From Escherichia phage ph0011: a stretch of 64,000 nt of DNA. Below are positions 5,317 through 61,377 of the stretch, one piece after another. Position 1 is the stretch's first letter. Each line of letters starts with the position of its first letter. Made by a program: the position numbers and the translations under genes. Location of the stretch: sequence record OP557969.1; one strand, given 5' to 3'. The notes under the pieces are model-generated. The model saw nothing but the letters and a program-made list of their open reading frames with translations. It did no database searches and was not told the DNA's origin.

Positions 5317-5859
5317 ATGAGTTTATTAGATACCATAGAAAAAGACAGAAGTGCCATTAAGAGATTAAAAAATCTGGTTCTGTGTATTGTGAACAACGTT
5401 GAAAAGTTTGAAGTCCAAGGAAGAATTGGTGATATTTCACATACAGGAATAAAATCCCTGAAGTCAGATTTATTAATTCATAAGGAAGATAAATTATTAT
5501 TTGTATTGAGTTCAGATTTATTGGTTGCAAGTAATGGTTTCAATTCGGTATCAACACAAGATGGTAGTACTGGATTATATCTATCACAGGGTGTACAGAC
5601 GAATGAACATAAGTGTTTTAGTTCAAGAGTACAGAATCCCTTTAAGTTTAATACAGAACAAGCTACAGAGCTTTTTGAGGCTTCAGAAGAGATGTTATTT
5701 CAGTACAAAATGGTCTATACAGATTTTGAAATACGATGCCTATACGCTGTTAAGCATTATGTACAAGAGTTCGAAGATTTAAATTATCTTTTAGTTCGAA
5801 CGAATACGAAGAACATTGACATATTAGAAGATTACATTTCAACAGTTGTTAGTGTGTAA
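5317..5859 (+). CDS. FamA (FQxS) paralog
   Basis: AAGGAAGG RBS; core SEEMLFQYKMVYTD. Confidence 0.75.
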   Translation: MSLLDTIEKDRSAIKRLKNLVLCIVNNVEKFEVQGRIGDISHTGIKSLKSDLLIHKEDKLLFVLSSDLLVASNGFNSVSTQDGSTGLYLSQGVQTNEHKCFSSRVQNPFKFNTEQATELFEASEEMLFQYKMVYTDFEIRCLYAVKHYVQEFEDLNYLLVRTNTKNIDILEDYISTVVSV

Positions 5860-5863
5860 TGGG

Positions 5864-6034
5864 ATGTTGCTTATGAAGGAGTTATTTGATGAACAGTTCA
5901 ATGTATTAATGGATAATATTCTTTTTTATAGCCTTGGTAGTAAACGAGGAAATCGTGCTTACAATATAGATTACATATTAACTGTGTTGAGTTCACAGTA
6001 CACATATGCTGTGCAGAGGACATATTATGAATAG
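5864..6034 (+). CDS. small hypothetical protein
   Basis: Track ORF 5846..6034 trimmed to first ATG after upstream stop. Confidence 0.35.
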   Translation: MLLMKELFDEQFNVLMDNILFYSLGSKRGNRAYNIDYILTVLSSQYTYAVQRTYYE

Positions 6035-6212
6035 TTATAGTGGTGTTGCTAAGGAGAAGTTAAATTGTAGTTTAGATTTTGGCTTAAATGATTTTCTTAC
6101 GTGCACAATGTTCAGGAATGATGATTATGAACAATCCGTAATTTCGTTGTATAGATATTTTGAAATAATTTACACAAGATACCTTAGAAGGTTAGAGGGA
6201 TTGGAATTATGA
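6027..6212 (+). CDS. small hypothetical protein
   Basis: Track ORF 6006..6212; ATG after AGAGGA. Confidence 0.4.
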   Translation: MNSYSGVAKEKLNCSLDFGLNDFLTCTMFRNDDYEQSVISLYRYFEIIYTRYLRRLEGLEL

Positions 6213-6427
6213 TTTATGAACAAAAAGTACCAAGTGGTTATAGTGTTGATGGTTTTGAATTCATGATGGATTTGGTTTTAAAGAATACATTAGTAGTACA
6301 CCGTGCATTACCGGACCATGTAGATAGTGCGGTTCAACGAATAATGAATGTATACGAGATGACGAGTCGAAAGCTTTGTGCAATGAAAAGGATTGAAGAA
6401 ATCAAGCGTTCTAGGATGAATAATTAG
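6209..6427 (+). CDS. small hypothetical protein
   Basis: ATGA overlap with upstream ORF; 72 aa. Confidence 0.5.
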   Translation: MIYEQKVPSGYSVDGFEFMMDLVLKNTLVVHRALPDHVDSAVQRIMNVYEMTSRKLCAMKRIEEIKRSRMNN

Positions 6428-6567
6428 AGACGTTTCGTATGATGTATTCAAACGTACAATAAAACAATACTATATAACTTTTTATAATTGATATTTTTTA
6501 AAAAATACACAATCACAACGTGCTCCTTTTATTGGAATTTACCTTATTAATTATAGTTGAGGGGAAG

Positions 6568-6945
6568 ATGGAAATGAAATATAAAGATTTTCATATAGGG
6601 ACATGGATGTACACTGGTGAGTTTATTACGTGCTGTAATTTATACAAGCGTGATTTAAACTACTCAAGGGAGAAGGTTATAAAGTTCGCAGATTCACAAT
6701 TTTATTTTATGGAGTTAAGTACTGGAATTCGTGTTAAATCAACCGTTATGCTGGATTATACAGTTCTGGATGAGGCACAATTATTTCAGGAGTCATTAGT
6801 ATTTGATAAGAAGTACAACTGTACATTAGAAGAGATAGTTGAAATCCAGCGTAGGATCAAATTTATTCACAAGGATTGTATCGATAAATGGTGTAAAACT
6901 GGTGAAACTAATTTTAGTAATTATTTCAATCTAGGGGAAGAGTGA
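6568..6945 (+). CDS. FamA paralog, short FDKKY subclass
   Basis: ATG after GAGGGGA (track 6520..); CCNL.K.D; core DEAQLFQESLVFDKKY. Confidence 0.8.
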   Translation: MEMKYKDFHIGTWMYTGEFITCCNLYKRDLNYSREKVIKFADSQFYFMELSTGIRVKSTVMLDYTVLDEAQLFQESLVFDKKYNCTLEEIVEIQRRIKFIHKDCIDKWCKTGETNFSNYFNLGEE

Positions 6946-7301
6946 TGGAATTTGATTTTGTAATATCAGTACATTCTTTCAAGAATAGTTTTCAGTACTT
7001 TTGTAATTTAAACAAAGGTGATTTAATGCACAGTGCAAATGAGTATATTCATTACACTGCTGGTAAATTTACATTTATTGATTACGATTCATTACAGTAT
7101 CCACATCAGGATATGCCGGACTTTACATTAATGGATGAGGCCGAACTATTCCAAGCTGCATTAGTATTCGATAAGAAGTACTTGTGTACACTAGAAGAAG
7201 TAATTGCCATACAAAATGAAATAAAAGAGTATGCTGCTTTGAATAAATCCAATGTAAGTATTAATCAAGAATACAAATTCAATATAGGAATTACAGAATG
7301 A
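6945..7301 (+). CDS. FamA paralog, short FDKKY subclass
   Basis: TGATG overlap; core DEAELFQAALVFDKKYLCTLEEV. Confidence 0.8.
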   Translation: MEFDFVISVHSFKNSFQYFCNLNKGDLMHSANEYIHYTAGKFTFIDYDSLQYPHQDMPDFTLMDEAELFQAALVFDKKYLCTLEEVIAIQNEIKEYAALNKSNVSINQEYKFNIGITE

Positions 7302-7663
7302 CATTTGATTATTCGATATACGTTTGCAAGTCCAGAACGGGGTGGGATTTGTGCTGTAATCTTGTCAAGGGTGACTCGGAACATGAGTTGAGTTTATATA
7401 TTCAGTACTCGGATTTGTGTTTTAATTTTATTGATGTATTGTATGATGACTTCGACTATAACTCTGAAAGTATTACAGATTATACAGTACTGGATGATGC
7501 TGAACTATTTCAAGCTTCTTTGGTGTTTGACAAGAATAAGTACTCATGTACAATAGAAGATATGATTTTTATACAAAATGAAATGAAGAGATATGTCAAA
7601 GAAAACACCTTTGATACATCTACACCAACAACAAGTAATTATTATTTCAATACAGGTGAGTAA
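7298..7663 (+). CDS. FamA paralog, short FDKKY subclass
   Basis: ATGA overlap; core DDAELFQASLVFDKNKY. Confidence 0.8.
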   Translation: MTFDYSIYVCKSRTGWDLCCNLVKGDSEHELSLYIQYSDLCFNFIDVLYDDFDYNSESITDYTVLDDAELFQASLVFDKNKYSCTIEDMIFIQNEMKRYVKENTFDTSTPTTSNYYFNTGE

Positions 7664-7664
7664 T

Positions 7665-8006
7665 ATGGAATATGATTTTTCTATTTATATGCCTATAATT
7701 AGTTCACAAGATGTGTATTGTAATCTTAATAAAGGTGATTACGAACACAAAATGGATCAGTACATTAAATTTAATGGTGCGTACTTTAGCTTCATTGATT
7801 ATCAGGCCAAAGGATCAGTTGTAGAAAATATGAAAGACTATACAACAGTACATGGTGAGGCTGAAATATTTCAAGAGTCATTAATATTCGACAAGAAGTA
7901 CTTGTGTACTCTAGAGGAAGTAATTGAACTCCAACAGAAGATGAAAGAATATAGAAGAATCTACACAGAGACTGGTTCCAAAGATAGGTATCGTTTTAAG
8001 CTATGA
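7665..8006 (+). CDS. FamA paralog, short FDKKY subclass
   Basis: ATG after AGGTGAG (track 7593..); core GEAEIFQESLIFDKKYLCTLEEV. Confidence 0.8.
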   Translation: MEYDFSIYMPIISSQDVYCNLNKGDYEHKMDQYIKFNGAYFSFIDYQAKGSVVENMKDYTTVHGEAEIFQESLIFDKKYLCTLEEVIELQQKMKEYRRIYTETGSKDRYRFKL

Positions 8007-8188
8007 ATAAAAAAGAACAAATGGAATCATTCATGAATACAATACTTCGACGATTCGTAATTGATATTAGACATAACAACATTACCAGGAATGACATGTG
8101 CTTCGGTACATATAATATTAGTGAATTGTATATAGCTAATATTCACATGGTGTACCGAGATTATATCCAGACACTACACGGGAGTTGA
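8003..8188 (+). CDS. small hypothetical protein
   Basis: ATGA overlap; 61 aa. Confidence 0.45.
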   Translation: MNKKEQMESFMNTILRRFVIDIRHNNITRNDMCFGTYNISELYIANIHMVYRDYIQTLHGS

Positions 8189-8189
8189 T

Positions 8190-8660
8190 ATGAGTTTTGA
8201 AAGAGCATTAGAAATTGCTAAGTTAATTGATGTATGTAAAAAAGAAATAGTGCTCAACAGACTCAATGGGTATCTATTCAAGGAAGGTAAATCTTATTGC
8301 CGAATGATATACGATGACAGTAGTGAATATATTCACATGTATGAAGAAAATCTTGATGAATCTGAAACAACACTCACTGGGTGTGATGTTAATCTGGAAG
8401 ATAATTACATGTACTTCTGTCGTGATGCTGATATTTTAATACAAGAAACATCATATCAAACTGGGAATCCAGAGGTATATCTTCCATATTCAGTACTGGA
8501 TAATGACTGGGGAAGTGAAGAGTTCTACTTCCAGCAGAATACTATCTACGATGAAGATGTACTTGACAAGCTTGTCATTCTGTGGTACTTTAAGAACACT
8601 GATACTCCTAACTTCTATATAGATTTGGATCTACTAAGAGTTATTAATGAGGATATATGA
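8190..8660 (+). CDS. FamA paralog, ~150-aa SALE/WYFK subclass
   Basis: N-term MSFERALEIAKLI; core SEEFYFQQNTIYDEDVLD; WYFK. Confidence 0.8.
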   Translation: MSFERALEIAKLIDVCKKEIVLNRLNGYLFKEGKSYCRMIYDDSSEYIHMYEENLDESETTLTGCDVNLEDNYMYFCRDADILIQETSYQTGNPEVYLPYSVLDNDWGSEEFYFQQNTIYDEDVLDKLVILWYFKNTDTPNFYIDLDLLRVINEDI

Positions 8661-9097
8661 GTTTAGTAAGTGCACTTGAACTGGCACACAAAATACACAA
8701 CTTCCATGATAAAATAAAAAGTGGGTTTTATGGTGATAACGTAAGTGAATTTGGTAATGAGTATTATCTATCAAGTTCAAATACATACGCTGATGATATT
8801 TTACTTATGGGTCATGATAAAGACAATACTATACAGTACTCTTCATGTAGTCAATATGCTAGTTTTATGGTATATATTCCAGGAACTAAGATTACTTTTG
8901 ACACATCAAATACACCTGTTGACTTCGGGGTACTTGATGGTCCATGGGGTACTGAAGAGTATTACTTCCAACAGAGTCTTATTTTTAGCCAAGAGATGCT
9001 TGATACCTTGGTTGTGTTGTGGTACTTTAAAGAATTGAATTTTGAACCATTCTTTCTTGACTGGGGAGCATGTGAGTATTTAAGTTCAGGAGAATAA
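8657..9097 (+). CDS. FamA paralog, ~150-aa SALE/WYFK subclass
   Basis: ATGA overlap; MSLVSALELAHKI; TEEYYFQQSLIFSQEMLD; WYFK. Confidence 0.8.
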   Translation: MSLVSALELAHKIHNFHDKIKSGFYGDNVSEFGNEYYLSSSNTYADDILLMGHDKDNTIQYSSCSQYASFMVYIPGTKITFDTSNTPVDFGVLDGPWGTEEYYFQQSLIFSQEMLDTLVVLWYFKELNFEPFFLDWGACEYLSSGE

Positions 9098-9099
9098 TA

Positions 9100-9567
9100 A
9101 TGTCATTGCGAAGTGCATTGAAAGAAGCAAAGAAGATCCATAATTACATGATTATGGTACAAGAAGGTTCCGTGCCTGGTGTATATAAAACATCTGATAC
9201 TGAATTTTTCGTAAAAGATCGAGATGATTATGATGAGTCAGAGATATGTGCAGAAACGTTAGTACTGCACATTGATACGGATGATACTGATGACTGTGAA
9301 TATCAGATGCACAATCAATACCTTAGTTATTATAGGGATGAAGATATTATAATTTACACTCCTGATTACGATGATGATAACATAATCATTCCGTATTCAG
9401 TTCTGGAAGGTCCATGGGATAGTGAAGAATATTATTTCCAGCAAAGTACTGTGTATAATGAAGATGTTTTAGATGTTATTGTAATTATGTGGTACTTTAA
9501 AAGTATTGATTCTGACAGTTTCTATTTCGATTATGAATACGTAGAGAATACTGTAGGGGGAAGATAA
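9100..9567 (+). CDS. FamA paralog, ~150-aa SALE/WYFK subclass
   Basis: MSLRSALKEAKKI; SEEYYFQQSTVYNEDVLD; WYFKSID. Confidence 0.8.
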   Translation: MSLRSALKEAKKIHNYMIMVQEGSVPGVYKTSDTEFFVKDRDDYDESEICAETLVLHIDTDDTDDCEYQMHNQYLSYYRDEDIIIYTPDYDDDNIIIPYSVLEGPWDSEEYYFQQSTVYNEDVLDVIVIMWYFKSIDSDSFYFDYEYVENTVGGR

Positions 9568-51859: not shown

Positions 51860-52242
51860 TGGAAAATGTCGTTGTATATGTATTTGAGATCAATAATGAA
51901 ATCAAGTACGTAATTAATGGTTATAAACATTACACAAGAGCAGACCGAAAGCTGGAAATATATTCAAAAGAAGCAAGAAACTACTGCTTAGGTGATGATT
52001 CAGTTGAGGTTTGGATTGATGGAAATGCAGAGTATTTTGATGCTGACTTCTATGATGATCTTGACAAATCAAATGACTTGTACATTTATGTAGAAAATGA
52101 ACATTATTACACAAATTCTTTGTTTGACATTACCGACAGTACAGTATATGATACTGCTATGGTTAAGTTACTAAAGATTGACCACGATATGTTTAATAAA
52201 CATACAATTTGTGGTTTATTAGATTTTTTCAGAAACTTGTAG
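51859..52242 (+). CDS. hypothetical protein
   Basis: TGATG overlap; 127 aa. Confidence 0.6.
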   Translation: MENVVVYVFEINNEIKYVINGYKHYTRADRKLEIYSKEARNYCLGDDSVEVWIDGNAEYFDADFYDDLDKSNDLYIYVENEHYYTNSLFDITDSTVYDTAMVKLLKIDHDMFNKHTICGLLDFFRNL

Positions 52243-52267
52243 ACAAATACGATCACTGTGATATAAT
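52239..52267 (+). promoter_or_regulatory. early-type sigma70 promoter (TGTGATATAAT class)
   Basis: GTAGAC - 17 nt (..cactgtga) - TATAAT. Confidence 0.65.
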
Positions 52268-52301
52268 ACTCACATAAATGAAACAATAGAGGAAAATAAC
52301 A

Positions 52302-52997
52302 ATGGTTGAACAATTCAATTTTGGTGGTTATGCTAATGGTGAAGTAAGTAACATTTCTATTCCATATGTAGTTGAGAAAGTTAATGGTTCAGAACGTACA
52401 TATGATCTAGCATCTCGTATGATGCAAGACCGTATCATTTTCCTTGATACTGACTTCAATGACCAAATGGCACATATCATCAAACAACAATTGGTGTGGT
52501 TAGACTCACAAGGTGATTCCCCTATTACATTCTATATTAGCTCACCGGGCGGTTCAGTACACGCAGGATTGGGTATTGCAGATGTTGCCAAGTCTTGTGT
52601 TTCACCAATTCGTACTGTAGTAATGGGTTATGCAGCTTCAATGGGGTGTTATACTCAATCGGTAATTGGTACTAAAGGTTTTCGTTTAGGTGGTAAGCGT
52701 TCTTACTTTATGTGTCATCAAGTAAGTTCTGGCACACAAGGTTTAATTACCGACCAGAAGATTTCACTTAAACATTCTGATGAATTGAATACACTATTGA
52801 CCAAAGAAATCGCAGAAGCAGTAGGTGTTTCTCATGAACAACTACTGAAAGATGCAGACCGTGATTTGTGGTTGAATGCTGAAGAAGCACTCGAATATGG
52901 TGAAAAAGGATTTATCGATGGTATTATCCTTGGACCACGCAACGAGAAAGGTCAATACCTAGTCAAGCGTCGTGGTGGTGTTGAAGAGTGGGTGTAA
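52302..52997 (+). CDS. ClpP-family (S14) serine protease
   Basis: ISSPGGSV, catalytic-type GYAASMG and FMCHQ; 231 aa. Confidence 0.8.
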   Translation: MVEQFNFGGYANGEVSNISIPYVVEKVNGSERTYDLASRMMQDRIIFLDTDFNDQMAHIIKQQLVWLDSQGDSPITFYISSPGGSVHAGLGIADVAKSCVSPIRTVVMGYAASMGCYTQSVIGTKGFRLGGKRSYFMCHQVSSGTQGLITDQKISLKHSDELNTLLTKEIAEAVGVSHEQLLKDADRDLWLNAEEALEYGEKGFIDGIILGPRNEKGQYLVKRRGGVEEWV

Positions 52998-53009
52998 AAT
53001 AGTTTTATT

Positions 53010-53036
53010 GATACCCCAAATGGGGTATCATCTTTT
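53010..53036 (+). terminator. Rho-independent terminator
   Basis: gatacccc-aaat-ggggtatc (8 bp) then atctttt. Confidence 0.75.
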
Positions 53037-53045
53037 GGAGATTAT

Positions 53046-53336
53046 ATGAAAGTTCTAGTTCGTAATAATACTGAAGTGGAAAGTGTATTAGATGATTCCG
53101 ATTTTATTAATGTTGCATTCGACCAAATGAGCACAGTAGTGCTTGAATTAAAAAATATAGATGAAGCCGAACGTGTACTGAATGGATTTGCAATTGTGCT
53201 TGAATTAATGAAAGAAGTATTAATTAAAAAGAACATGAATCCAGGTGATGTGGTTAAACATGCAGAAGCTGAGCGTAAAGAACACGGGTCATTCTCTGAT
53301 AAAAAATACATTCAAACTGATGAGGTAAAAGAATAA
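53046..53336 (+). CDS. hypothetical protein
   Basis: TGGAG RBS; 96 aa. Confidence 0.6.
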   Translation: MKVLVRNNTEVESVLDDSDFINVAFDQMSTVVLELKNIDEAERVLNGFAIVLELMKEVLIKKNMNPGDVVKHAEAERKEHGSFSDKKYIQTDEVKE

Positions 53337-53337
53337 T

Positions 53338-53784
53338 ATGTCCAATGCACAATATAAAGATGGTTATGACGCATACAAAGCAAAAGTAGTTCTAAGTGCT
53401 GAACAACTAAAAATGCAGCACCCATTGTATCGTCAGGGTTATCGTGCAGCACAAGCAGAATCGATGAAGAAAAATAATGTAACTTTCCCTACGACGTTAT
53501 ATGATATTCCAAAACGCCCACACATTTTTAAAGCAGAATGGACTGATATTATGGCAGCAACTAAACGTCCTCGTTTTGCTAAACTTCACACTGATGAAGG
53601 TCGATGGCTACTAATGGGTATTATGAAAGCAGTTGAGAATCAATCTCACAAAATCGTTCGTTATAAAGATGTTGTGGCTATGGTTGATAAAGCATTTGAT
53701 CTCGTGCTACAATACGGCTATGAAGAAGGCGTATTAACTGTTGCAGATTGTGAACAATATCAGTACACACCTTTTCAAAAATAG
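53338..53784 (+). CDS. hypothetical protein
   Basis: 148-aa ORF directly after upstream stop. Confidence 0.6.
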   Translation: MSNAQYKDGYDAYKAKVVLSAEQLKMQHPLYRQGYRAAQAESMKKNNVTFPTTLYDIPKRPHIFKAEWTDIMAATKRPRFAKLHTDEGRWLLMGIMKAVENQSHKIVRYKDVVAMVDKAFDLVLQYGYEEGVLTVADCEQYQYTPFQK

Positions 53785-53793
53785 TATAACAAA

Positions 53794-53819
53794 AAGGAAT
53801 CCAGATCTGGATTCCTTTT
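53794..53819. terminator. palindromic (potentially bidirectional) terminator
   Basis: aaggaatccaga|tctggattcctt perfect palindrome flanked by an A-run and a T-run. Confidence 0.7.
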
Positions 53820-53875
53820 CTTATTACTGTATACTTAAATGAATATATGAAATTAGTTCTGGTTTAGAGGACATA

Positions 53876-54400
53876 ATGAAATATACACAACTAAACAACA
53901 ATGATACTAATATATGGTTAGGAAATATATCTAAAACACTTGAATTGGTTAAATTCACACTACAAAAATCGGTCGATATTGAAATTAATATTAAGAAAGA
54001 AATATTAAAACATTATCATAAAAATAAATTTTACAAGTTTATTTCTAAATTAATCTATGGGTTATATGATATTGAAGATATTTGTATTGGGTACAGTACT
54101 GGTATTTGTTTCACTACTGATGGTATAATGAATGATTTAAATTTTCGACTAACCCGCGAAGAACAAGATTTTCGTATATTTTGTGATAATATCATGAATG
54201 AAGATAAAATCCAATTTGTGATTGAATTGAGTCAGATATGGTCTGTATATGCAGACAAACCATTCGAAATTAATGAATCAGATATATTAAACTATATTCG
54301 AATAATGAAAATTCATGATTTATGTAAAAACGCATTACTAAGTATTGGAGCCTATGATGAAGCATACGACGTGGTTAAAGATAGCAGAAGTGGTTGCTGA
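53876..54400 (+). CDS. hypothetical protein
   Basis: AGAGGA RBS; 174 aa. Confidence 0.6.
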   Translation: MKYTQLNNNDTNIWLGNISKTLELVKFTLQKSVDIEINIKKEILKHYHKNKFYKFISKLIYGLYDIEDICIGYSTGICFTTDGIMNDLNFRLTREEQDFRIFCDNIMNEDKIQFVIELSQIWSVYADKPFEINESDILNYIRIMKIHDLCKNALLSIGAYDEAYDVVKDSRSGC

Positions 54401-54836
54401 AGAAAGTAAATGTCTTTCTCAAAAAGTTGGGTGTGTGATTGTTAAAAATAACCGAGTATTGAGTACTGGTTATAATGGTACTCCATCTAAACAACCTAAT
54501 TGTTGTGATGTTAATCAACATTTAGTTAAGAATGGTCGTTTTCAAGACTGGATTAGTGATGAAGCAAAGCATGAACACCATGAGTGGAGTAATATTCATG
54601 AAATACATGCAGAAATGAATGCACTGTTATATAGTTCTCCGACTGAGCGTCAAGGTTCAACACTTTACACAACACTCCAACCGTGTTATACTTGTTCTAA
54701 ATTGATAGCGGGGAGTGGTGTTTCTCGTGTAATTTATCAAAAAAGTTATCCTCGTACTCCACCAGAGGCTATTAAAGTACTGGAAGATGCTGGGATTATT
54801 GTAAATTGCATTTATGATAAGGATCTTGACAAATGA
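54357..54836 (+). CDS. cd: dCMP deaminase (T4 Cd-like)
   Basis: HAEMNAL and PCYTCSKLI zinc motifs; N-term ..IAEVVAEESKC..KVGCVIVKNNRVLSTGYNG like T4 Cd; start 54354/54357. Confidence 0.85.
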   Translation: MKHTTWLKIAEVVAEESKCLSQKVGCVIVKNNRVLSTGYNGTPSKQPNCCDVNQHLVKNGRFQDWISDEAKHEHHEWSNIHEIHAEMNALLYSSPTERQGSTLYTTLQPCYTCSKLIAGSGVSRVIYQKSYPRTPPEAIKVLEDAGIIVNCIYDKDLDK

Positions 54837-55090
54837 CATTATTGGCAATCGCTGGTTTTTTGTTTATATTAGTTTTCTTGTTATTATTGGTAATGTTTGT
54901 TATTGATGATAACGATGGATATTTCAGAAATTATAAAGTACGCTTTTCTGCACAAAATAATAAGTATTATATTGTGAATTGTATTAAACATCGTGAAAAG
55001 AATGTAACAAATAGATTTGGATTTACAATTTATTACAAAGACCGCGTAGAGGCTGATATGATTTGTCAAAAACTTAACACAGTAGAATAA
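54833..55090 (+). CDS. small membrane protein (1 TM)
   Basis: ATGA overlap; LLAIAGFLFILVFLLLLVMFVI. Confidence 0.55.
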   Translation: MTLLAIAGFLFILVFLLLLVMFVIDDNDGYFRNYKVRFSAQNNKYYIVNCIKHREKNVTNRFGFTIYYKDRVEADMICQKLNTVE

Positions 55091-55094
55091 AAAA

Positions 55095-55117
55095 AGGAGC
55101 CATATGGCTCCTTTTTT
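55095..55117. terminator. bidirectional-type terminator
   Basis: aaaaa-aggagcc-atat-ggctcct-ttttt. Confidence 0.75.
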
Positions 55118-55311
55118 ATGTTTTTACGTAAGATGTATAGATCATTATTCAATTTGATTTTGTGAATCATATACATAGAACAAAAACCTCCAACACCTGC
55201 TTTTTCATCTTTTAATTTAATGAAGAAAGTATCATCTCTTAGACTTTCATCTGAATTTTCGATACTATCAATAGAAAAAGGAAGTCTTCCGGTTAATGCA
55301 ATTATGCTACT

Positions 55312-55342
55312 CTAAGGAAAGTGCATGATAATTATCATGCAC
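55312..55342 (-). terminator. hairpin downstream of the minus-strand gene
   Basis: gtgcatgata-at-tatcatgcac (10 bp); on the minus strand followed by tttcctt (weak U-tract). Confidence 0.45.
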
Positions 55343-55356
55343 TATATTATTAAAAA

Positions 55357-58029
55357 TTAAGCACTGATTGTTACAGTTGCAGTATCTTTTTTATTACCAT
55401 CCACTGTAGTCACTGTAATGATTACAGAACCTTCTTCTAGAGCAGTTACTAATCCATCATCACTAATAGATACTTTAGTAGGTTTATCTGCACTATAAGT
55501 TACTGATTTGTTAGTTGCTTTAGCTGGTAGAACTTCTGGAACTAGTTGAACTGTTTTAGTTCCTGATAGTGAAAGTTCAGTAGTTTTAGGTGTTAAACTA
55601 ACACTGGATACTGGAACTGGAATATTAACGATTACTGATGTTTGACCAGTAACATCACTACCATCAGCGGCAGTAGCGATAATATTTGCAGTACCATTAG
55701 TTAGTGCAGTTACGATACCAGTATTAGCATCTACTTTAGCAATTTCTGGAGCACTGGATGACCAAATTACATTTTTATTGGTTGCATCACTTGGGGTAAT
55801 TGCAGCAGCCATTTGTTTAGTTGCATTCAATGTAGTCAAAGTTTGATCTTTAGGAGTTACATCAATTGCAGTTACTGGCACTGGAATATTAACAGTAATA
55901 ACACCTTGACCTGTTTTACCACTTCCATCAGCAGCAGTTGCGATAATGTTTGCAGAACCGTTAGTTAACGCAGTTACAACACCAGTACTAGCATCTACTT
56001 TCGCTACAGCAGGTTTACTGGAAGACCATGTTACAGATTTATTTGTTGCGTTAGTTGGAAGAACTTCAGCAGCCATTGCTTGAGTTGCGTTAACAGCAGT
56101 CAATGTTTTAGTTGCTGGAGTAACATTAATAGATGCGACTGGAACTGGAATTGCTACAGTTACCGCACATTTTGCAGTTTTTGCTCCATCAGCAGTTGTT
56201 ACTGTGATATCAGCAGTGCCATTTGCTACAGCAGTGATTAAACCAGTTGGACTAACAGTTGCCACTCCATCAGCAGAAGTACTATAAGTTACTGCTTTGT
56301 TGGTAGCATTAGGTGGTAGTACAGTTGGTGTTAGTTGTTGAGTATCACCGACTGAAGTTAATTTAGCACTTGTTGGAGATACTGATACACTTGCAACAGG
56401 AACTGGAATGTTAACAGTTACCACGCAAACTTTAGAAAATCCACCATCAGATGTGGTTGCTGTAATATTTGCAGTACCGTTTGCAACAGCAGTGATTAAA
56501 CCAGTTGGACTTACCGTTGCGACACCCTCAGCAGAAGTAGTGTATGAAATATCTTTACGACGAGCGTTATCTGGAATAACAGATGCAGTTAGTTGTTGAG
56601 TAGCACCTACAGAAGTTAGGGTTGCTGTCAACGGAGTCATATTAATTCCAGTTACTGGGATCGTTACATCAATCACTGATTCAGCAGTTTTAGCACCATC
56701 ATCAGTGGTAACAGTAATAGTTGTAGTACCGTTATCAACCGAAGTTACTAGACCAGTATTACTAACTTTTGCTACGTCTGGATATGAAGAAACATATGAA
56801 ACTGCTTTATTGGATGCAGTTGCAGGAGCAACGGTTGTTTCTAATTGTTTAGTATCACCTAATGTTGAGAATGTATAAGTACTAGGAGTCATTGTGACAC
56901 CAGATACTGGTGTTTTCACTGTGATTGTAGTAGTGTCCGTTTTAGCACCATCTTCGGTTGTAGCTGTAATCACCACTGTGCCGTTAGCCACACCAGTTAC
57001 TAGACCAGAAGTAGGGTTAACAGTTGCTATATCAGGTGTTGCTGAAGACCACGTGACGTTTTTATTAGTTGCATCATCAGGAGATATTGTAGCAGTTAAT
57101 TGTTGAGTACTGCCAACGTTAATTGATGCAGTTTTAGGAGAAACAACAACACCACTAACTGGAGTTGTTACAGTAACAGTACATTTTGAAACAAATGAAC
57201 CATCAACTGTAGTTGCAATTACATCAGTACTGCCATCTGCAATACCAGTTACCATACCAGTTGGACTTACAGTTGCGAAGCGTGGTATACTGGATGACCA
57301 AATAACACTTTTATCACTTGCATCATCGGGTGATACGGTAGCTGTTAGTTGATGAGTTTTACCAACACCAAGAGATAGAGTTGAAGGAGAAACAACAACA
57401 CCACTAACTGGAGTTGTTACAGTAAATGCACAAACATCGGTGAAACCACCATCATGAGTAGTAACTGTTACATTTGCATTACCATTAGCACGGGCAATTG
57501 CTAAACCAGTTTGAGCATCAACTTCAACTATTGTTGGAGCAGAGGAACTATAACTTACTGTTGGATCATTTGCATAATCTGGATTAATTGTAGCTGATAG
57601 TTGTTGTGTGCTACCAACTTTAAGTGCTACTACTTTGGGTGAAATAATAACACCATTAACTGGTGTAGTATAATCACGTTTAACCACACGACCATTGTTC
57701 AATTTAATAATACGACCCATATAAAGAGTAGCATATCCCTTACTAATCCCATCATCTACATAAATCATAAATGAATTGTCTTGAACCATATTAATTGCGT
57801 CTACTGGCTTAACAGTATTTGGAATGTCGATACCACGGGTATCATACCAACACATGGAAACTTTGTAATATATATCACCATTATCATTGATGAGATCATA
57901 CACGTTACTGGAACGTTGACGGTTAATATATAAAGTTTCGGTTAATACCTTACCATCGATTTTAGCGACAGAAACTTTAATACCACCAATACCAAATGGC
58001 AATTTACCTTCACTAGATATTGCTTTCAT
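55357..58029 (-). CDS. Ig-like (Big_2) repeat virion-surface/adhesin-type protein
   Basis: 890 aa; ~121-aa N-domain then 9 repeats starting (T/I)PV..V..P....L..G.TQQL..; AAAGGAAAG RBS; only minus-strand gene. Confidence 0.8.
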   Translation of the reverse strand: MKAISSEGKLPFGIGGIKVSVAKIDGKVLTETLYINRQRSSNVYDLINDNGDIYYKVSMCWYDTRGIDIPNTVKPVDAINMVQDNSFMIYVDDGISKGYATLYMGRIIKLNNGRVVKRDYTTPVNGVIISPKVVALKVGSTQQLSATINPDYANDPTVSYSSSAPTIVEVDAQTGLAIARANGNANVTVTTHDGGFTDVCAFTVTTPVSGVVVSPSTLSLGVGKTHQLTATVSPDDASDKSVIWSSSIPRFATVSPTGMVTGIADGSTDVIATTVDGSFVSKCTVTVTTPVSGVVVSPKTASINVGSTQQLTATISPDDATNKNVTWSSATPDIATVNPTSGLVTGVANGTVVITATTEDGAKTDTTTITVKTPVSGVTMTPSTYTFSTLGDTKQLETTVAPATASNKAVSYVSSYPDVAKVSNTGLVTSVDNGTTTITVTTDDGAKTAESVIDVTIPVTGINMTPLTATLTSVGATQQLTASVIPDNARRKDISYTTSAEGVATVSPTGLITAVANGTANITATTSDGGFSKVCVVTVNIPVPVASVSVSPTSAKLTSVGDTQQLTPTVLPPNATNKAVTYSTSADGVATVSPTGLITAVANGTADITVTTADGAKTAKCAVTVAIPVPVASINVTPATKTLTAVNATQAMAAEVLPTNATNKSVTWSSSKPAVAKVDASTGVVTALTNGSANIIATAADGSGKTGQGVITVNIPVPVTAIDVTPKDQTLTTLNATKQMAAAITPSDATNKNVIWSSSAPEIAKVDANTGIVTALTNGTANIIATAADGSDVTGQTSVIVNIPVPVSSVSLTPKTTELSLSGTKTVQLVPEVLPAKATNKSVTYSADKPTKVSISDDGLVTALEEGSVIITVTTVDGNKKDTATVTISA
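55360..57666 (-). repeat. 9 tandem ~255-270-bp coding repeats (Big_2 domains)
   Basis: Adjacent units near-identical at DNA level, e.g. 56210-56280 vs 56470-56540 (..cagcagtgattaaaccagttggac..). Confidence 0.75.
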
Positions 58030-58066
58030 ATACTTTCCTTTATAAAATTGTATTGTATTGTTATAT

Positions 58067-58074
58067 TATTTATA
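58067..58074 (-). promoter_or_regulatory. T4-late-type promoter TATAAATA
   Basis: Plus strand tatttata = minus strand TATAAATA, ~38 nt upstream of the Big_2 ATG. Confidence 0.5.
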
Positions 58075-58265
58075 TTATAACAAAATTATTTTAGTATTAA
58101 AAAGGTGTTCGAATGCTTCTTGAAATCTGGCTTGGACAGGTCAATCTTTGCTTTTAAAATGGAATTGTAAACTGCCTCCTGATATGATATCATAGTTTAA
58201 ATGGTAAATCAATAAACTTAACAAAAAAAACTTGCTACTACAGTCATAATTGTTCAATTTTGTAC

Positions 58266-58294
58266 TTGACATAATTAATCAATTATTGTACTAT
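58266..58294 (+). promoter_or_regulatory. sigma70-type promoter
   Basis: TTGACA - 17 nt - TACTAT upstream of 58330. Confidence 0.55.
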
Positions 58295-58329
58295 TGTTAA
58301 TGTTCCTTAACTCAAATCCGAGGTAATCA

Positions 58330-58935
58330 ATGAAACTATTCTTGAAAGAGATTGTACAAACCGTTGTTTTAATCGCTGCATTAAATTTTCCAGCAGCGGC
58401 AGAAGTTTCAAAAAAAGCATCTGTTCTTCTATTAAATGAACAGGTTGTATCAATGGATGGTGAACTAAATGATAATACGGTACAAGAAGTAGAGCAGTTG
58501 TGGAAAGAAAAAAGATTTAAAATTTTAACAATTACATCACCTGGGGGTGATTTTGATGCTGGTATTAAAATGGCAAATTTTGTTAGAGACAATGGTATAA
58601 ATTTAATTGTTTCTAAATATTGCAATTCGGCATGTACTGTGGTATTCTTTAGTGTATCCCCAGAAAAGCGATATATGACAAATCAATCAGTACTGGGATT
58701 GCATAATATTTCAATCAAAAGTAACGTTAAAGATATGGATCATACTTTCGTATCTGTTAGACAACTATCATCATTTACTGAAGAAATGGCAACAAAAGTA
58801 GGATTTTTATTTACACTATATTCAGCTAATGGTATTCCACCTAGCATTCTATATAAAGTTAGTCGTTCACGTGGTGAAGATGTTGTTATCTTAACAAAAA
58901 CAGACCTAATAAATTACGGTTCAGTCAATCCATGA
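58330..58935 (+). CDS. secreted ClpP/NfeD-fold serine-protease-like protein
   Basis: Signal peptide ..VVLIAALNFPAAAE; ITSPGGDFDAG, CNSACTV, GLHNIS resemble the ClpP-class layout. Confidence 0.55.
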   Translation: MKLFLKEIVQTVVLIAALNFPAAAEVSKKASVLLLNEQVVSMDGELNDNTVQEVEQLWKEKRFKILTITSPGGDFDAGIKMANFVRDNGINLIVSKYCNSACTVVFFSVSPEKRYMTNQSVLGLHNISIKSNVKDMDHTFVSVRQLSSFTEEMATKVGFLFTLYSANGIPPSILYKVSRSRGEDVVILTKTDLINYGSVNP

Positions 58936-59003
58936 AAATAATTATAATAACAGGATGATTATGTTGTTCTTCCTTTGTTATTAACTATATCGGAAATATA
59001 ACC

Positions 59004-59264
59004 ATGACAAACATCCAGAATTTGACATCTATTATTTTTTATGCTACAGTGGTGATATATGCTATTGTACTTATTTTAACAGTTTTTATATACAAAGATT
59101 ACAAAAAAGGCTTTATTAATAGCACAACAATCAAGTTCAATTCTAAATTTAAAGAAATTATATTTTATGTTTTGACAACATCATATTTGTTGTGTATATT
59201 GTTACTAGGGCCATTGATTTATATTTTATATACAACATTATTTGCAATTGGAGCTATTTTATGA
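59004..59264 (+). CDS. small membrane protein
   Basis: 86 aa, 2-3 hydrophobic segments. Confidence 0.55.
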   Translation: MTNIQNLTSIIFYATVVIYAIVLILTVFIYKDYKKGFINSTTIKFNSKFKEIIFYVLTTSYLLCILLLGPLIYILYTTLFAIGAIL

Positions 59265-59857
59265 CATGTATTATTGCACACACTAACGGTGTAACTTCAT
59301 TTATTGCAGGGGACAAGATGGGGAGTGATGGTTTTACGAAATCAATCCAAACAGAGCCGAAAGTGTTTGAGAAAGAATTCGTAAAGATTAGTGGTGATGA
59401 CGGCTTGACTCGTACAAAAGATGTTATGACTTTTGGATTCACTACATCATTTCGTATGGGGCAACTGCTAACTTACAATTTAAATTTACCAGACCAAAAT
59501 TCAAATGAGACGTTTCTACAGTACTTAGTACTGAAAGTTATTCCTATTATTCGCCAAATGTTTAAAGACGAATGGGGTGCACGTGATACATCACAAGATG
59601 TTGGTGGTGGTCAATTTATTATTTTACACAATCATAAGATTTATGAAATTCAGGAAGATTTTTCAGTTCTCCAGTCAAAATCAAGTATTGCATCAGTTGG
59701 TAGTGGTACATATCATGCAATTGCAGCGATGCAAGCATACATTGAACTCGAAAAAGAAACTAACGTACAACTTCATGAACGTATCAAATCTATTTTCAAA
59801 ATTGTCAGTGATAATGTGTCGAGTGTAAGTGAAGAGTTTGATGTATTAAAATATTAA
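59261..59857 (+). CDS. HslV/proteasome-beta-like Ntn hydrolase
   Basis: ATGA overlap (track 59192..); Met-Thr start (MTCIIAHT..), ..GDKMGSDG.., ..SVGSGTYHAIAAMQAY like the HslV GSG..A motif. Confidence 0.55.
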   Translation: MTCIIAHTNGVTSFIAGDKMGSDGFTKSIQTEPKVFEKEFVKISGDDGLTRTKDVMTFGFTTSFRMGQLLTYNLNLPDQNSNETFLQYLVLKVIPIIRQMFKDEWGARDTSQDVGGGQFIILHNHKIYEIQEDFSVLQSKSSIASVGSGTYHAIAAMQAYIELEKETNVQLHERIKSIFKIVSDNVSSVSEEFDVLKY

Positions 59858-59872
59858 AATTATAAGAGAGAA

Positions 59873-60067
59873 ATGATGGCATACACAATTTATGAATGGA
59901 TTTTGAGTTTTATTATAGTATTTTTTATGGTTGTAATTTACAATAATGCTAAATGCTTATATAGAGATTTAAAATCCAATGGTTATCATGCAAACAATAA
60001 TTTAATGTATGCCTATCATATTGGAATCATTCTATTATTATCAATATATTTAATTGGCTTTATATAA
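59873..60067 (+). CDS. small membrane protein (2 TM)
   Basis: 64 aa; WILSFIIVFFMVVIY / IGIILLLSIYLIGFI. Confidence 0.55.
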   Translation: MMAYTIYEWILSFIIVFFMVVIYNNAKCLYRDLKSNGYHANNNLMYAYHIGIILLLSIYLIGFI

Positions 60068-60076
60068 GGATTACGT

Positions 60077-60829
60077 ATGATATCAGAAAAATTCATAAGT
60101 AATGAGGGAAACAAGAGATTACTTATCATCTCAGGAGCAGGTCTTTCCGTTGAAAGTGGTATGGACCCATTTCGTTTCGATGATGGCCTATGGGATACAT
60201 TTAAAATTAATGATGTATGTAATATTGCAAATTTAGATACAAAATATCATATTGTTCATTCGTTTTATAACACGCTGCGTGTTAAACTGGGTCAATGTGA
60301 ACCAAATGCAATGCATTATTTTATAAAATCATTAGAGGAACAATATGGTGATTGTTTCCTTCATATGACTTCAAATATGGATGATCTTTACACCCGTATT
60401 GGCGGTAAAGAACTTAAACTTCATGGTAATTTATGTGAAGTGATAGAAAATTATAGTATTAATGGTGATGATTACAACATTGTTAACTGTGGTTATGAGC
60501 CATATATCCCAAAACATGATATTTTTGCTAAACCAAATGTAGTGATGATTGGTGAGTATCATCGTTATGTAGATGGTGTACGCCTACCAATATATGAAGA
60601 ACGAAATAATGTCTTGAAATCCCTTGATGAAAATGATACAGTTATTGTTATTGGTAGCAGCGATACTGTTCTTGTATGGTCCCGATTGGTAGCATCATTG
60701 CCATGTTATAGTGTCAATGTTAATATTAGAAAGAATGATAATGATTTTTTGTTTAATGAAAAAATTATCAAGCCAGCAACCAAAGCAATACCACAACTAG
60801 AGACTATAATTAAGGAACGTATGAAATGA
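60077..60829 (+). CDS. Sir2-family NAD-dependent deacylase/ADP-ribosyltransferase
   Basis: ISGAGLSVESGMDPFR, LHGNL, KPNVVMIGE, VIGSSDTV motifs; no 4-Cys zinc module seen. Confidence 0.8.
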   Translation: MISEKFISNEGNKRLLIISGAGLSVESGMDPFRFDDGLWDTFKINDVCNIANLDTKYHIVHSFYNTLRVKLGQCEPNAMHYFIKSLEEQYGDCFLHMTSNMDDLYTRIGGKELKLHGNLCEVIENYSINGDDYNIVNCGYEPYIPKHDIFAKPNVVMIGEYHRYVDGVRLPIYEERNNVLKSLDENDTVIVIGSSDTVLVWSRLVASLPCYSVNVNIRKNDNDFLFNEKIIKPATKAIPQLETIIKERMK

Positions 60830-61377
60830 GTGTTAAAGAAGTTCCCTTTGGTGAATATGGTTCACGTGCAAATTTTGTATTCTGCTATTTCTTTGCAAGA
60901 GGATGTAATCCCTACGAAAACTATGAGTTGAATGATATACCAGAAGTAAATTTAGTATTACTTCAACTACGATGGGATGGCCTTCTGGGTGGATGTGGTG
61001 GTACAGTTGAAAGTACTGATATCTCATTAGAAGATGCGTTGCGTCGTGAAATACAAGAAGAAATGAACTACTATATTTTTGTTTCTCACCTAAAACCACT
61101 TAAAACGTTTGAAATTTACCCAGGTGCAAACAGTCATAGTTTCAGTTATGAAGTAACATATGATGAGTTAAAATACATTCGTGATGGGTATACAACTGCC
61201 AAACATGCAAGTGCCGAAGTTGCTGGTGTAAATTTATGTCACATTTCTCGTTATTCTAAGGGACAAAATCGAGAAGCGGGATATAATAATCTTATGACAC
61301 AGAACTTCATCGGTACAGCAAAACACGAATTAGCGTATCTGGTACAAAAAGAGAACTTACTAATTAGCTATCTATAG
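60826..61377 (+). CDS. Nudix hydrolase
   Basis: ATGA overlap with Sir2; GGTVESTDISLEDALRREIQEEMN (REUxEE signature, non-canonical spacing). Confidence 0.6.
   Translation: MSVKEVPFGEYGSRANFVFCYFFARGCNPYENYELNDIPEVNLVLLQLRWDGLLGGCGGTVESTDISLEDALRREIQEEMNYYIFVSHLKPLKTFEIYPGANSHSFSYEVTYDELKYIRDGYTTAKHASAEVAGVNLCHISRYSKGQNREAGYNNLMTQNFIGTAKHELAYLVQKENLLISYL

Follow-up and report, generated by a model that had tools for sequence, protein, structure and literature searches.

Bacterial ClpP (MEROPS family S14; E. coli ClpP, PDB 1TYF and 1YG6), which acts with the unfoldase ClpA, is the closest described counterpart of the first of three protease-type genes analysed here. The second is best compared with SppA (family S49) and the N-terminal domain of NfeD, and the third with HslV, BPH and the phage-borne proteasome homologues PPH, AAH and CPH, which were catalogued from many phages by Fuchs et al. 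(2021) with no gene context pointing to a function. ClpP was described by Iyer et al. (2021) as a patchily distributed peptidase of jumbo phages that is probably directed at the host, and the conservation of ClpA in Rak2-like phages has already been remarked on in the Atu_ph07 paper. The three open reading frames (ORFs), ORF A (52302-52997), ORF B (58330-58935) and ORF C (59261-59857), lie on the plus strand of a 64,000-nucleotide stretch of Escherichia phage ph0011 (record OP557969.1), referred to below as the window. Their orthologues in phage 121Q, gp464, gp473 and gp475, carry the GenBank notes 'protease (ClpP-like)', 'protease (ClpP-like)' and 'protease (ClpYQ-like)', respectively. All three folds had therefore been assigned before in the public record of a sister phage, and at the annotation level such assignments are ordinary and nothing new in kind.

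We consider it rather probable that the three are accessory peptidase genes, independent of one another, in a jumbo phage of 121Q/PBECO4 type (Asteriusvirus), and not one system, comprising a ClpP with its own ClpA-like partner, an exported Ser-His enzyme (ORF B) and an N-terminal-threonine hydrolase (ORF C). They do not appear to form one unit, because the ClpP gene has its own promoter-like and terminator-like sites and ORF C occupies a variable slot. A sequence-only reading of the window had placed three different protease-fold genes within 8 kb; the three ORFs and their motifs were confirmed there, over a span of 7.56 kb (52302-59857), and the proposed folds (ClpP, exported ClpP-fold and HslV-like) hold in Pfam, Foldseek and profile matches. 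A megablast search with positions 52000-60100 matched 42 phage records, all of them from the 121Q/PBECO4 group of jumbo phages (genus Asteriusvirus) or its relatives, with Escherichia phage UE-S1 as the best match (90% identity, 90% query cover). The phage, previously taken to be T4-type, is better described as a Rak2-like jumbo phage with T4-like head genes than as T4-type in the narrow sense. Direct, colinear orthologues of all three genes were found in 121Q, PBECO4, phAPEC6 and UE-S1, differing only in sequence divergence. Identity to the UE-S1 orthologues was 99% for ORF A, 88% for ORF B and 96.5% for ORF C; to those of 121Q it was 96.5%, 68% and about 81%, respectively, so that ORF A is conserved far above ORF C and ORF B in the latter comparison. 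If the reading of three independent peptidases is true, this clade would make an ATP-dependent ClpAP machine of its own, export another enzyme of ClpP fold and encode a proteasome-like peptidase, a rare instance of a virus bringing several compartmentalised proteases rather than inhibiting or borrowing those of the host, and trapping mutants could identify the host or phage proteins destroyed. The practical gain is smaller, namely the correction of a RefSeq label, a probable phage-encoded ClpP partner and an exported enzyme in a large uncharacterised family.

ORF A encodes 231 amino acids and contains the motifs AASMG and MCHQ. It matched Pfam CLP_protease (PF00574) with an E-value of 1.6e-41 and 142.6 bits (cut-off 20.2), and dozens of solved bacterial ClpPs in PDB at about 1e-36. 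In alignment it was 37% identical to E. coli ClpP, with S113, H139 and D188 on the catalytic S97, H122 and D171, giving a complete Ser-His-Asp triad; the comparison sequence is what we take to be E. coli ClpP, and its motifs agree with the PDB alignments. ORF A also retains the oxyanion motif SPGG, the conserved N-terminal loop region and, ahead of the catalytic Asp, the Arg-Asp pair; extensions of 19 amino acids at the N-terminus and about 20 at the C-terminus set the phage-encoded protein apart from mature E. coli ClpP. Judged by its conserved residues, ORF A is a divergent and catalytically complete ClpP. Its identity across the Rak2-like clade ranges from 66 to 99% (72% to RaK2 ORF489). 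The gene had been credited with an early-type promoter of its own. A sigma70-like site is indeed present upstream at 52240-52267 on the plus strand (TAGACA, 16 nt, TATAAT, with the TG of an extended -10; 11 of 12 consensus positions), but promoter-like sites in the region were not enriched, 38 being found against 43 expected in shuffled sequences, and this 'early promoter' is a consensus match only. A terminator-like hairpin with a T-run (9-bp stem, 5 GC pairs) follows the gene at 53009-53030 on the plus strand, and the two sites fit a single-gene transcription unit.

A candidate partner for ORF A is encoded by the clade itself. RaK2 ORF069 (769 amino acids) has the ClpA architecture, with Clp_N, AAA, AAA_lid_9, AAA_2 and ClpB_D2-small domains, and homologues with about 75% identity were found in 32 Escherichia phage records, among them UE-S1 (UES1_530, at 283.8 kb), as well as in Klebsiella, Salmonella, Erwinia, Yersinia, Cronobacter and PA5oct-type phages. 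The ClpA-like gene and the ORF A-like ClpP gene occur in the same set of phage lineages. At the position that we take to be that of the ClpP-docking IGL loop of E. coli ClpA, the phage proteins read KRSIGMSGSE (IGM, UE-S1) and KRSIGVSTVD (IGV, RaK2). Conversely, 4 of 11 mapped residues of the docking pocket, as we presume its composition in E. coli ClpP, are changed non-conservatively in ORF A (Y60T, F82S, F112L and L114G), which fits a private partner. The two genes differ from bacterial clpP and clpA in their placement, the partner gene being far off in the genome and not in the same operon (about 86 kb from the ClpP gene in the closest relative). The presence of a ClpX in the clade was rejected: a tblastn search with the AAA+ module of E. 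coli ClpX matched only seven Escherichia phage records, compared with the 30-plus Asteriusvirus records. At least one of the seven is a piece of host DNA (a 3-kb record with 100% identity), and the weak match in RaK2 proved to come from the ClpA-like gene.

With a double-AAA+ unfoldase of ClpA type, bearing an IGM or IGV loop, encoded in the clade, ORF A need not borrow host ATPases, and the dependence on host ClpX or ClpA envisaged in the sequence-only reading is not required. We infer that ORF A would work mainly with the phage's own unfoldase; this double-ring protein and ORF A are the most likely pair and would give the phage a cytoplasmic, ATP-dependent ClpAP protease of its own. The substrates of this protease could be either host proteins or spent phage proteins.

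ORF B (201 amino acids) has a signal-peptide-like N-terminus, as had been proposed from the sequence. The predicted signal peptide covers residues 1-24 (58330-58401, plus strand) and ends in an AxA sequence (A22-A23-A24) before E25; the hydrophobic segment and the F-P-A-x-A motif (F20, P21, A22 and A24) are present in all close members of the family, and the segment in 15 of 16 distant relatives aligned. The SPGG, CNSAC and LHN elements (S70-x-G72-G73, C98-x-S100-x-C102 and H125-N126) were invariant in alignment. ORF B matched Pfam CLP_protease (PF00574) marginally, at 23.6 bits against a cut-off of 20.2. Its relatives likewise gave marginal Pfam matches only, to CLP_protease and NfeD1b_N, the latter weakly in 8 of 40 distant relatives. 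In the AlphaFold2 (AF2) model, which is confident for residues 29-124 only, the mean predicted local distance difference test (pLDDT) score was 60, and the top Foldseek matches obtained with it were ClpP2 and ClpP (E 3e-07, TM about 0.5) and SppA.

A word-indexed search returned only 11 close clusters of ORF B, whereas an exhaustive profile search recovered 2,026 relatives at E of 0.001 or below. In 17 full-length relatives (24-47% identity), S70, G72, G73, C98, S100, C102, H125, N126, Y164, G168 and P170 were invariant; in 40 more distant ones SxGG, the Ser and the His were invariant and the two cysteines were kept in at least 90%. In a hidden Markov model (HMM) alignment to solved ClpPs, S100 and H125 fell on the catalytic Ser and His, respectively. 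No Asp or Glu was invariant among the 17 relatives, in which D184 and E183 vary, and a complete conserved Ser-His-Asp triad was thus not found; D184, paired with ClpP D171 by MAFFT, was rejected as the third catalytic residue as its position is not conserved. ORF B is accordingly described, from its sequence, as a ClpP-fold protein with conserved Ser and His and no conserved acidic third residue. It shares with SppA and the N-terminal domain of NfeD the ClpP/crotonase fold, a predicted extracytoplasmic location and a nucleophilic serine in an equivalent place of the structure. However, SppA uses a Ser-Lys pair, whereas the ORF B family conserves Ser-His and no Lys, and the score of ORF B on NfeD1b_N (PF25145) was 17.4 bits, under the cut-off of 40. 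We know of no description of a CxSxC arrangement around the nucleophile as a feature of the SppA or NfeD families.

ORF B would be exported by way of a cleavable signal peptide and act as a serine hydrolase through a Ser100-His125 pair; as a member of a large uncharacterised family (SxGG, CxSxC, H), it would probably cut periplasmic proteins or peptides. Among cultured phages the family was found in Rak2-like jumbo phages only (48 records), and its bacterial members are stand-alone genes in uninformative contexts (Ferrimonas and one metagenomic contig). The CxSxC family is the least-understood piece of the locus. A bolder and rather doubtful proposal, taken as a whole, is that ORF B stands for a family, not described before, of exported Ser-His peptidases with the ClpP fold, of which bacteria and Rak2-like jumbo phages have about 2,000 members and in which two invariant cysteines frame the nucleophile (C-x-S-x-C), and that the phage copy leads an apparent Sir2/Nudix operon and cuts envelope or periplasmic proteins of the host during infection. 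Under this proposal the targets would include, for example, receptors and envelope-located defence components. The cysteines could form a periplasmic disulfide or a redox switch.

ORF C (198 amino acids; 175-200 is typical of its family) begins M-T-C, contains VGSGTYHAIAAM and, by its predicted structure, is a proteasome-beta/HslV-fold N-terminal nucleophile hydrolase. It matched phrog_1040 ('peptidase HslV family') at 1.3e-21, and a profile of its family reached HslV at 2.8e-07. The AF2 model has a pLDDT of 94, and its top Foldseek matches were HslV and BPH (E about 1e-9, TM 0.6-0.7). In a 51-sequence alignment M1, C3, D18, K34, G59, S63, F64, R65, Q68, G117 and G147 were invariant and T2 was present in at least 90%; after removal of the Met, T2, D18 and K34 correspond to Thr1, Asp17 and Lys33 of the proteasome, along with an oxyanion Gly (G59), and the GSG motif lies at 147-149. 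The Met-Thr start noticed earlier is real, and ORF C would be an N-terminal-threonine hydrolase in which Met removal alone would expose Thr1. The family is spread across many phages: the motif SFRMGQ[LI]L was found in at least 593 viral contigs, and the isolates include, besides Asteriusvirus, about 100 T5-like Salmonella and E. coli phages. ORF C probably acts as a self-assembling peptidase without HslU.

ORF C has in common with HslV, BPH and the homologues catalogued by Fuchs et al. a compact, propeptide-free proteasome-beta fold, the Thr1/Asp17/Lys33 set and the oxyanion Gly, and its model includes helices H64-73 and H85-105, with H1-H4 as in HslV and BPH. It is set apart from HslV by the family motif TTSFRMGQLL and by a Cys directly after the catalytic Thr that is invariant in all family members. 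No HslU gene was noticed in its vicinity, with no search aimed at one. PPH has about 140 residues and lacks helix H2, and connectase lacks H1 and H2 (Fuchs et al., 2021); ORF C is too long for a PPH and possesses H2, and thus falls outside that group. The Asteriusvirus members carry an insertion of about 18 residues at about 37-56, a beta-hairpin between Lys34 and the oxyanion Gly59, which is absent elsewhere in the family. Proteasome-fold proteins are common among phage structure predictions.

The start of ORF C overlaps, as ATGA, the stop of a gene for an 86-amino-acid hydrophobic protein with two or three transmembrane segments (59004-59264, plus strand), with GGAG 7 nt upstream of the ORF C ATG. 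This overlap had been pointed out before and is genuine, and the arrangement is conserved in 121Q (gp474/gp475) and UE-S1. A possible membrane association of ORF C, drawn from it, was not supported: a small hydrophobic ORF lies directly upstream of the HslV-like gene in 3 of 81 loci, equal to background, and the coupling is lineage-specific. An upstream membrane protein was consequently rejected as a trait of the family. Nor did clustering of neighbours by BLAST identify a conserved partner of the HslV-like genes; only small unrelated groups were obtained (portal, S78 protease, dCMP deaminase, ThyA, TK, ligase, methylase and HD). In 12 of 82 loci (e.g. L047) a portal gene is the next gene downstream of the HslV-like one, with a median gap of about 190 nt, and a Peptidase_S78 prohead protease gene follows about 2 kb downstream in six loci; the proteasome-like gene therefore sits inside the head module in some phages.

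Several points weigh against the reading of three independent accessory peptidases. ORF A scores far under the NCBIfam ClpP equivalog cut-offs (TIGR00493, 152.3 bits against 308.6; NF001368, 156 bits against 249), and one ClpP peptide was reported from the virion mass spectrometry of phage CBB. The ClpA-like and gp21-like genes are known from relatives only; both lie outside the 64-kb window, which contains no ORF of more than 500 amino acids besides an immunoglobulin (Ig)-repeat gene. Export of ORF B was judged by eye from its N-terminus. Its model cannot be relied on in the C-terminal half, where residues 125-187 have a pLDDT below 50, and ORF B, with no invariant acidic residue, could therefore be inactive or use a different chemistry. 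ORF C had no Pfam match, PF00227 included, is only 15-18% identical to HslV and, at 17.5 bits on the HslV models (TIGR03692/NF003964; cut-off 157.75), stays under all curated thresholds for HslV or the proteasome. One 'proteasome-like' protein, connectase, is a ligase, and a peptidase role for ORF C is therefore not guaranteed. Literature searches found no functional study of ORF A, B or C. Alignment of the catalytic residues, the check suggested with the sequence-only reading, bore out the triad of ORF A, the Ser and His of ORF B and the Thr1 of ORF C, and failed on the third residue of ORF B.

ORF B, ORF C or both might be non-proteolytic, either as pseudo-enzymes or as ligases or amidases acting on a non-protein substrate. 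The lack of a conserved third residue in ORF B and its Pfam score just over threshold would suit this, as would a weak, sub-threshold Pfam similarity of ORF C to the connectase N-domain (E 0.12). We nevertheless regard it as unlikely, since both families, though deeply diverged, keep invariant motifs for the nucleophile, the general base and the oxyanion hole, which is unexpected for pseudo-enzymes, and ORF C has all four helices where connectase lacks two.

The idea that the three genes form one coordinated programme, in which the enzymes hijack host ClpX, ClpA and HslU and remodel proteostasis in the cytoplasm, the membrane and the periplasm, was the central suggestion of the sequence-only reading. 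Their closeness within 7.6 kb favours it, as does the host-directed role suggested by Iyer et al. (2021) for the patchy jumbo-phage ClpP. In addition, ORF B, ORF C, Sir2 and Nudix genes lie on one strand with no terminator predicted between them. ORF B is preceded by a sigma70-like promoter match (TTGACA, 17 nt, TACTAT; 58266-58294, plus strand) and a GAGG ribosome-binding site at about 58320. It is followed consecutively by the 86-amino-acid membrane ORF, ORF C, a second small membrane ORF encoding a 64-amino-acid hydrophobic protein (59873-60067), a Sir2 gene (60077-60829) and a Nudt16-like Nudix gene (60826-61377), all on the plus strand, and from its sequence the run from ORF B through Nudix is probably one operon. 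ORF A stands apart from it, separated from ORF B by two hypothetical genes, a structural gene, a dCMP deaminase gene and an opposite-strand gene for an 890-amino-acid protein with nine Big_2 domains, and by three terminator-like sites.

Comparison with relatives speaks against the coordinated programme. In RaK2 the order is ClpP, dCMP deaminase, Ig-like gene (minus strand), ORF B homologue, cytidylyltransferase, HNH, NAMPT, Sir2 and Nudix, with no HslV-like gene in the region, and two metagenomic relatives (L087 and L089) show the RaK2-like order with Acb1 added. The spacing of ORF A and ORF B therefore reflects general colinearity of the clade, and ORF C lies in a variable slot: RaK2 and both metagenomic relatives keep ClpP and ORF B and have NMNAT/NAMPT at the ORF C position. 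Across viruses, the neighbours of HslV-like genes were diverse; of 82 loci covered by an iterated HMM search, only about 5 had a ClpP-fold gene no more than 8 kb away, and a conserved ClpP-fold/HslV-like pair was rejected as a general rule. A T4-like contig in which an NfeD-like ClpP-fold gene lies 24 nt upstream of an HslV-like gene (L004) is a point in favour. The phage-encoded ClpA-like partner, the lack of a ClpX-like match in most of the Asteriusvirus records, the low identity of ORF C to HslV and the lineage-specific membrane coupling all count against a hijack of host unfoldases or a shared scheme. One coordinated programme is accordingly improbable, and the suggestion of deliberate remodelling by a single module was not upheld, given the separate signals of the ClpP gene, the intervening deaminase and opposite-strand Ig genes and the swappable ORF C slot.

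The slot after the ORF B homologue was compared between 59004-60067 of the window, 5644-9302 of the RaK2 locus (L094) and 6697-10697 of L087. In Asteriusvirus it holds a membrane ORF, the HslV-like gene and a membrane ORF; in RaK2 and the metagenomic relatives it holds an NMNAT/Nudix-type cytidylyltransferase gene and NAMPT (NAD salvage), and in L087 an Acb1-family gene as well. Sir2 and the Nudt16-like Nudix gene follow in every case. The slot looks like an accessory or counter-defence gene region. PADLOC gave no defence-system match for ORF A, B, C, the membrane ORF or Sir2, and no convincing defence-model match for Sir2 and the Nudt16-like Nudix. The Sir2/Nudix pair, whose genes overlap by 4 nt (60826-60829), is probably translationally coupled and is conserved in 121Q, RaK2 and L087. 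The pair in L004 (5258-6558; contig from Logan SRR10605998) is the only tight ClpP-fold/HslV-like pair seen outside Asteriusvirus; its 239-amino-acid cytoplasmic ClpP-fold protein has ACSSAGS and LMIHT motifs and a weak NfeD1b_N match, and the gene lies just after a PhoH gene.

The least tenable alternative assigns capsid (head) maturation to ORF A, in line with the RefSeq labels of its orthologues in 121Q (gp464, NC_025447), RaK2 (ORF489, NC_019526), CBB and the records NC_041878 and NC_042116. Beyond these product names and the CBB virion peptide, it can draw on the match of ORF A to phrog_94 ('head maturation protease', 3.4e-44). Against it, 121Q encodes a separate T4 gp21-like protease (gp601; Peptidase_S77, 9.9e-21), its gene flanked by the portal gene on one side and by those for the gp22-like scaffold and the gp23-like capsid protein on the other; the same arrangement is annotated in phage Sharanji, and the virion mass spectrometry of phAPEC6 lists the gp21-like gp227c, with 'protease' nowhere else in the virion table. 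ORF A also scored 52.3 bits on the ClpP-related head-protease model NF045542 (cut-off 120) compared with about 155 on cellular ClpP models, and lies among ligase, phosphoesterase and deaminase genes with its own promoter-like site upstream. A role of ORF A in head maturation is thus very improbable. The view that all three genes are accessory and none the head protease, already taken in the sequence-only reading, is borne out by gp601 and gp227c. The RefSeq label is likely wrong because these genomes carry the separate gp21-like Peptidase_S77, and it is very probably a mis-transfer through the PHROG name.

Two further observations concern neighbouring sequence. The 890-amino-acid protein between ORF A and ORF B (55357-58029, minus strand) consists of nine tandem Big_2 Ig-like domains preceded by about 115 N-terminal amino acids that match a 'virion structural protein' PHROG. 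The gene is always the divergent neighbour of the ORF B homologue, with which it shares the intergenic region holding the ORF B promoter match. It is much longer here than its orthologues, which have 126 amino acids in 121Q (gp471), 633 in UE-S1 and 211-560 in metagenomic relatives, and the number of Ig repeats therefore grows and shrinks rapidly. At about 1300-26100 the window holds a long run of same-strand ORFs of about 140-200 amino acids, presumably the 'FamA' of the sequence-only reading.

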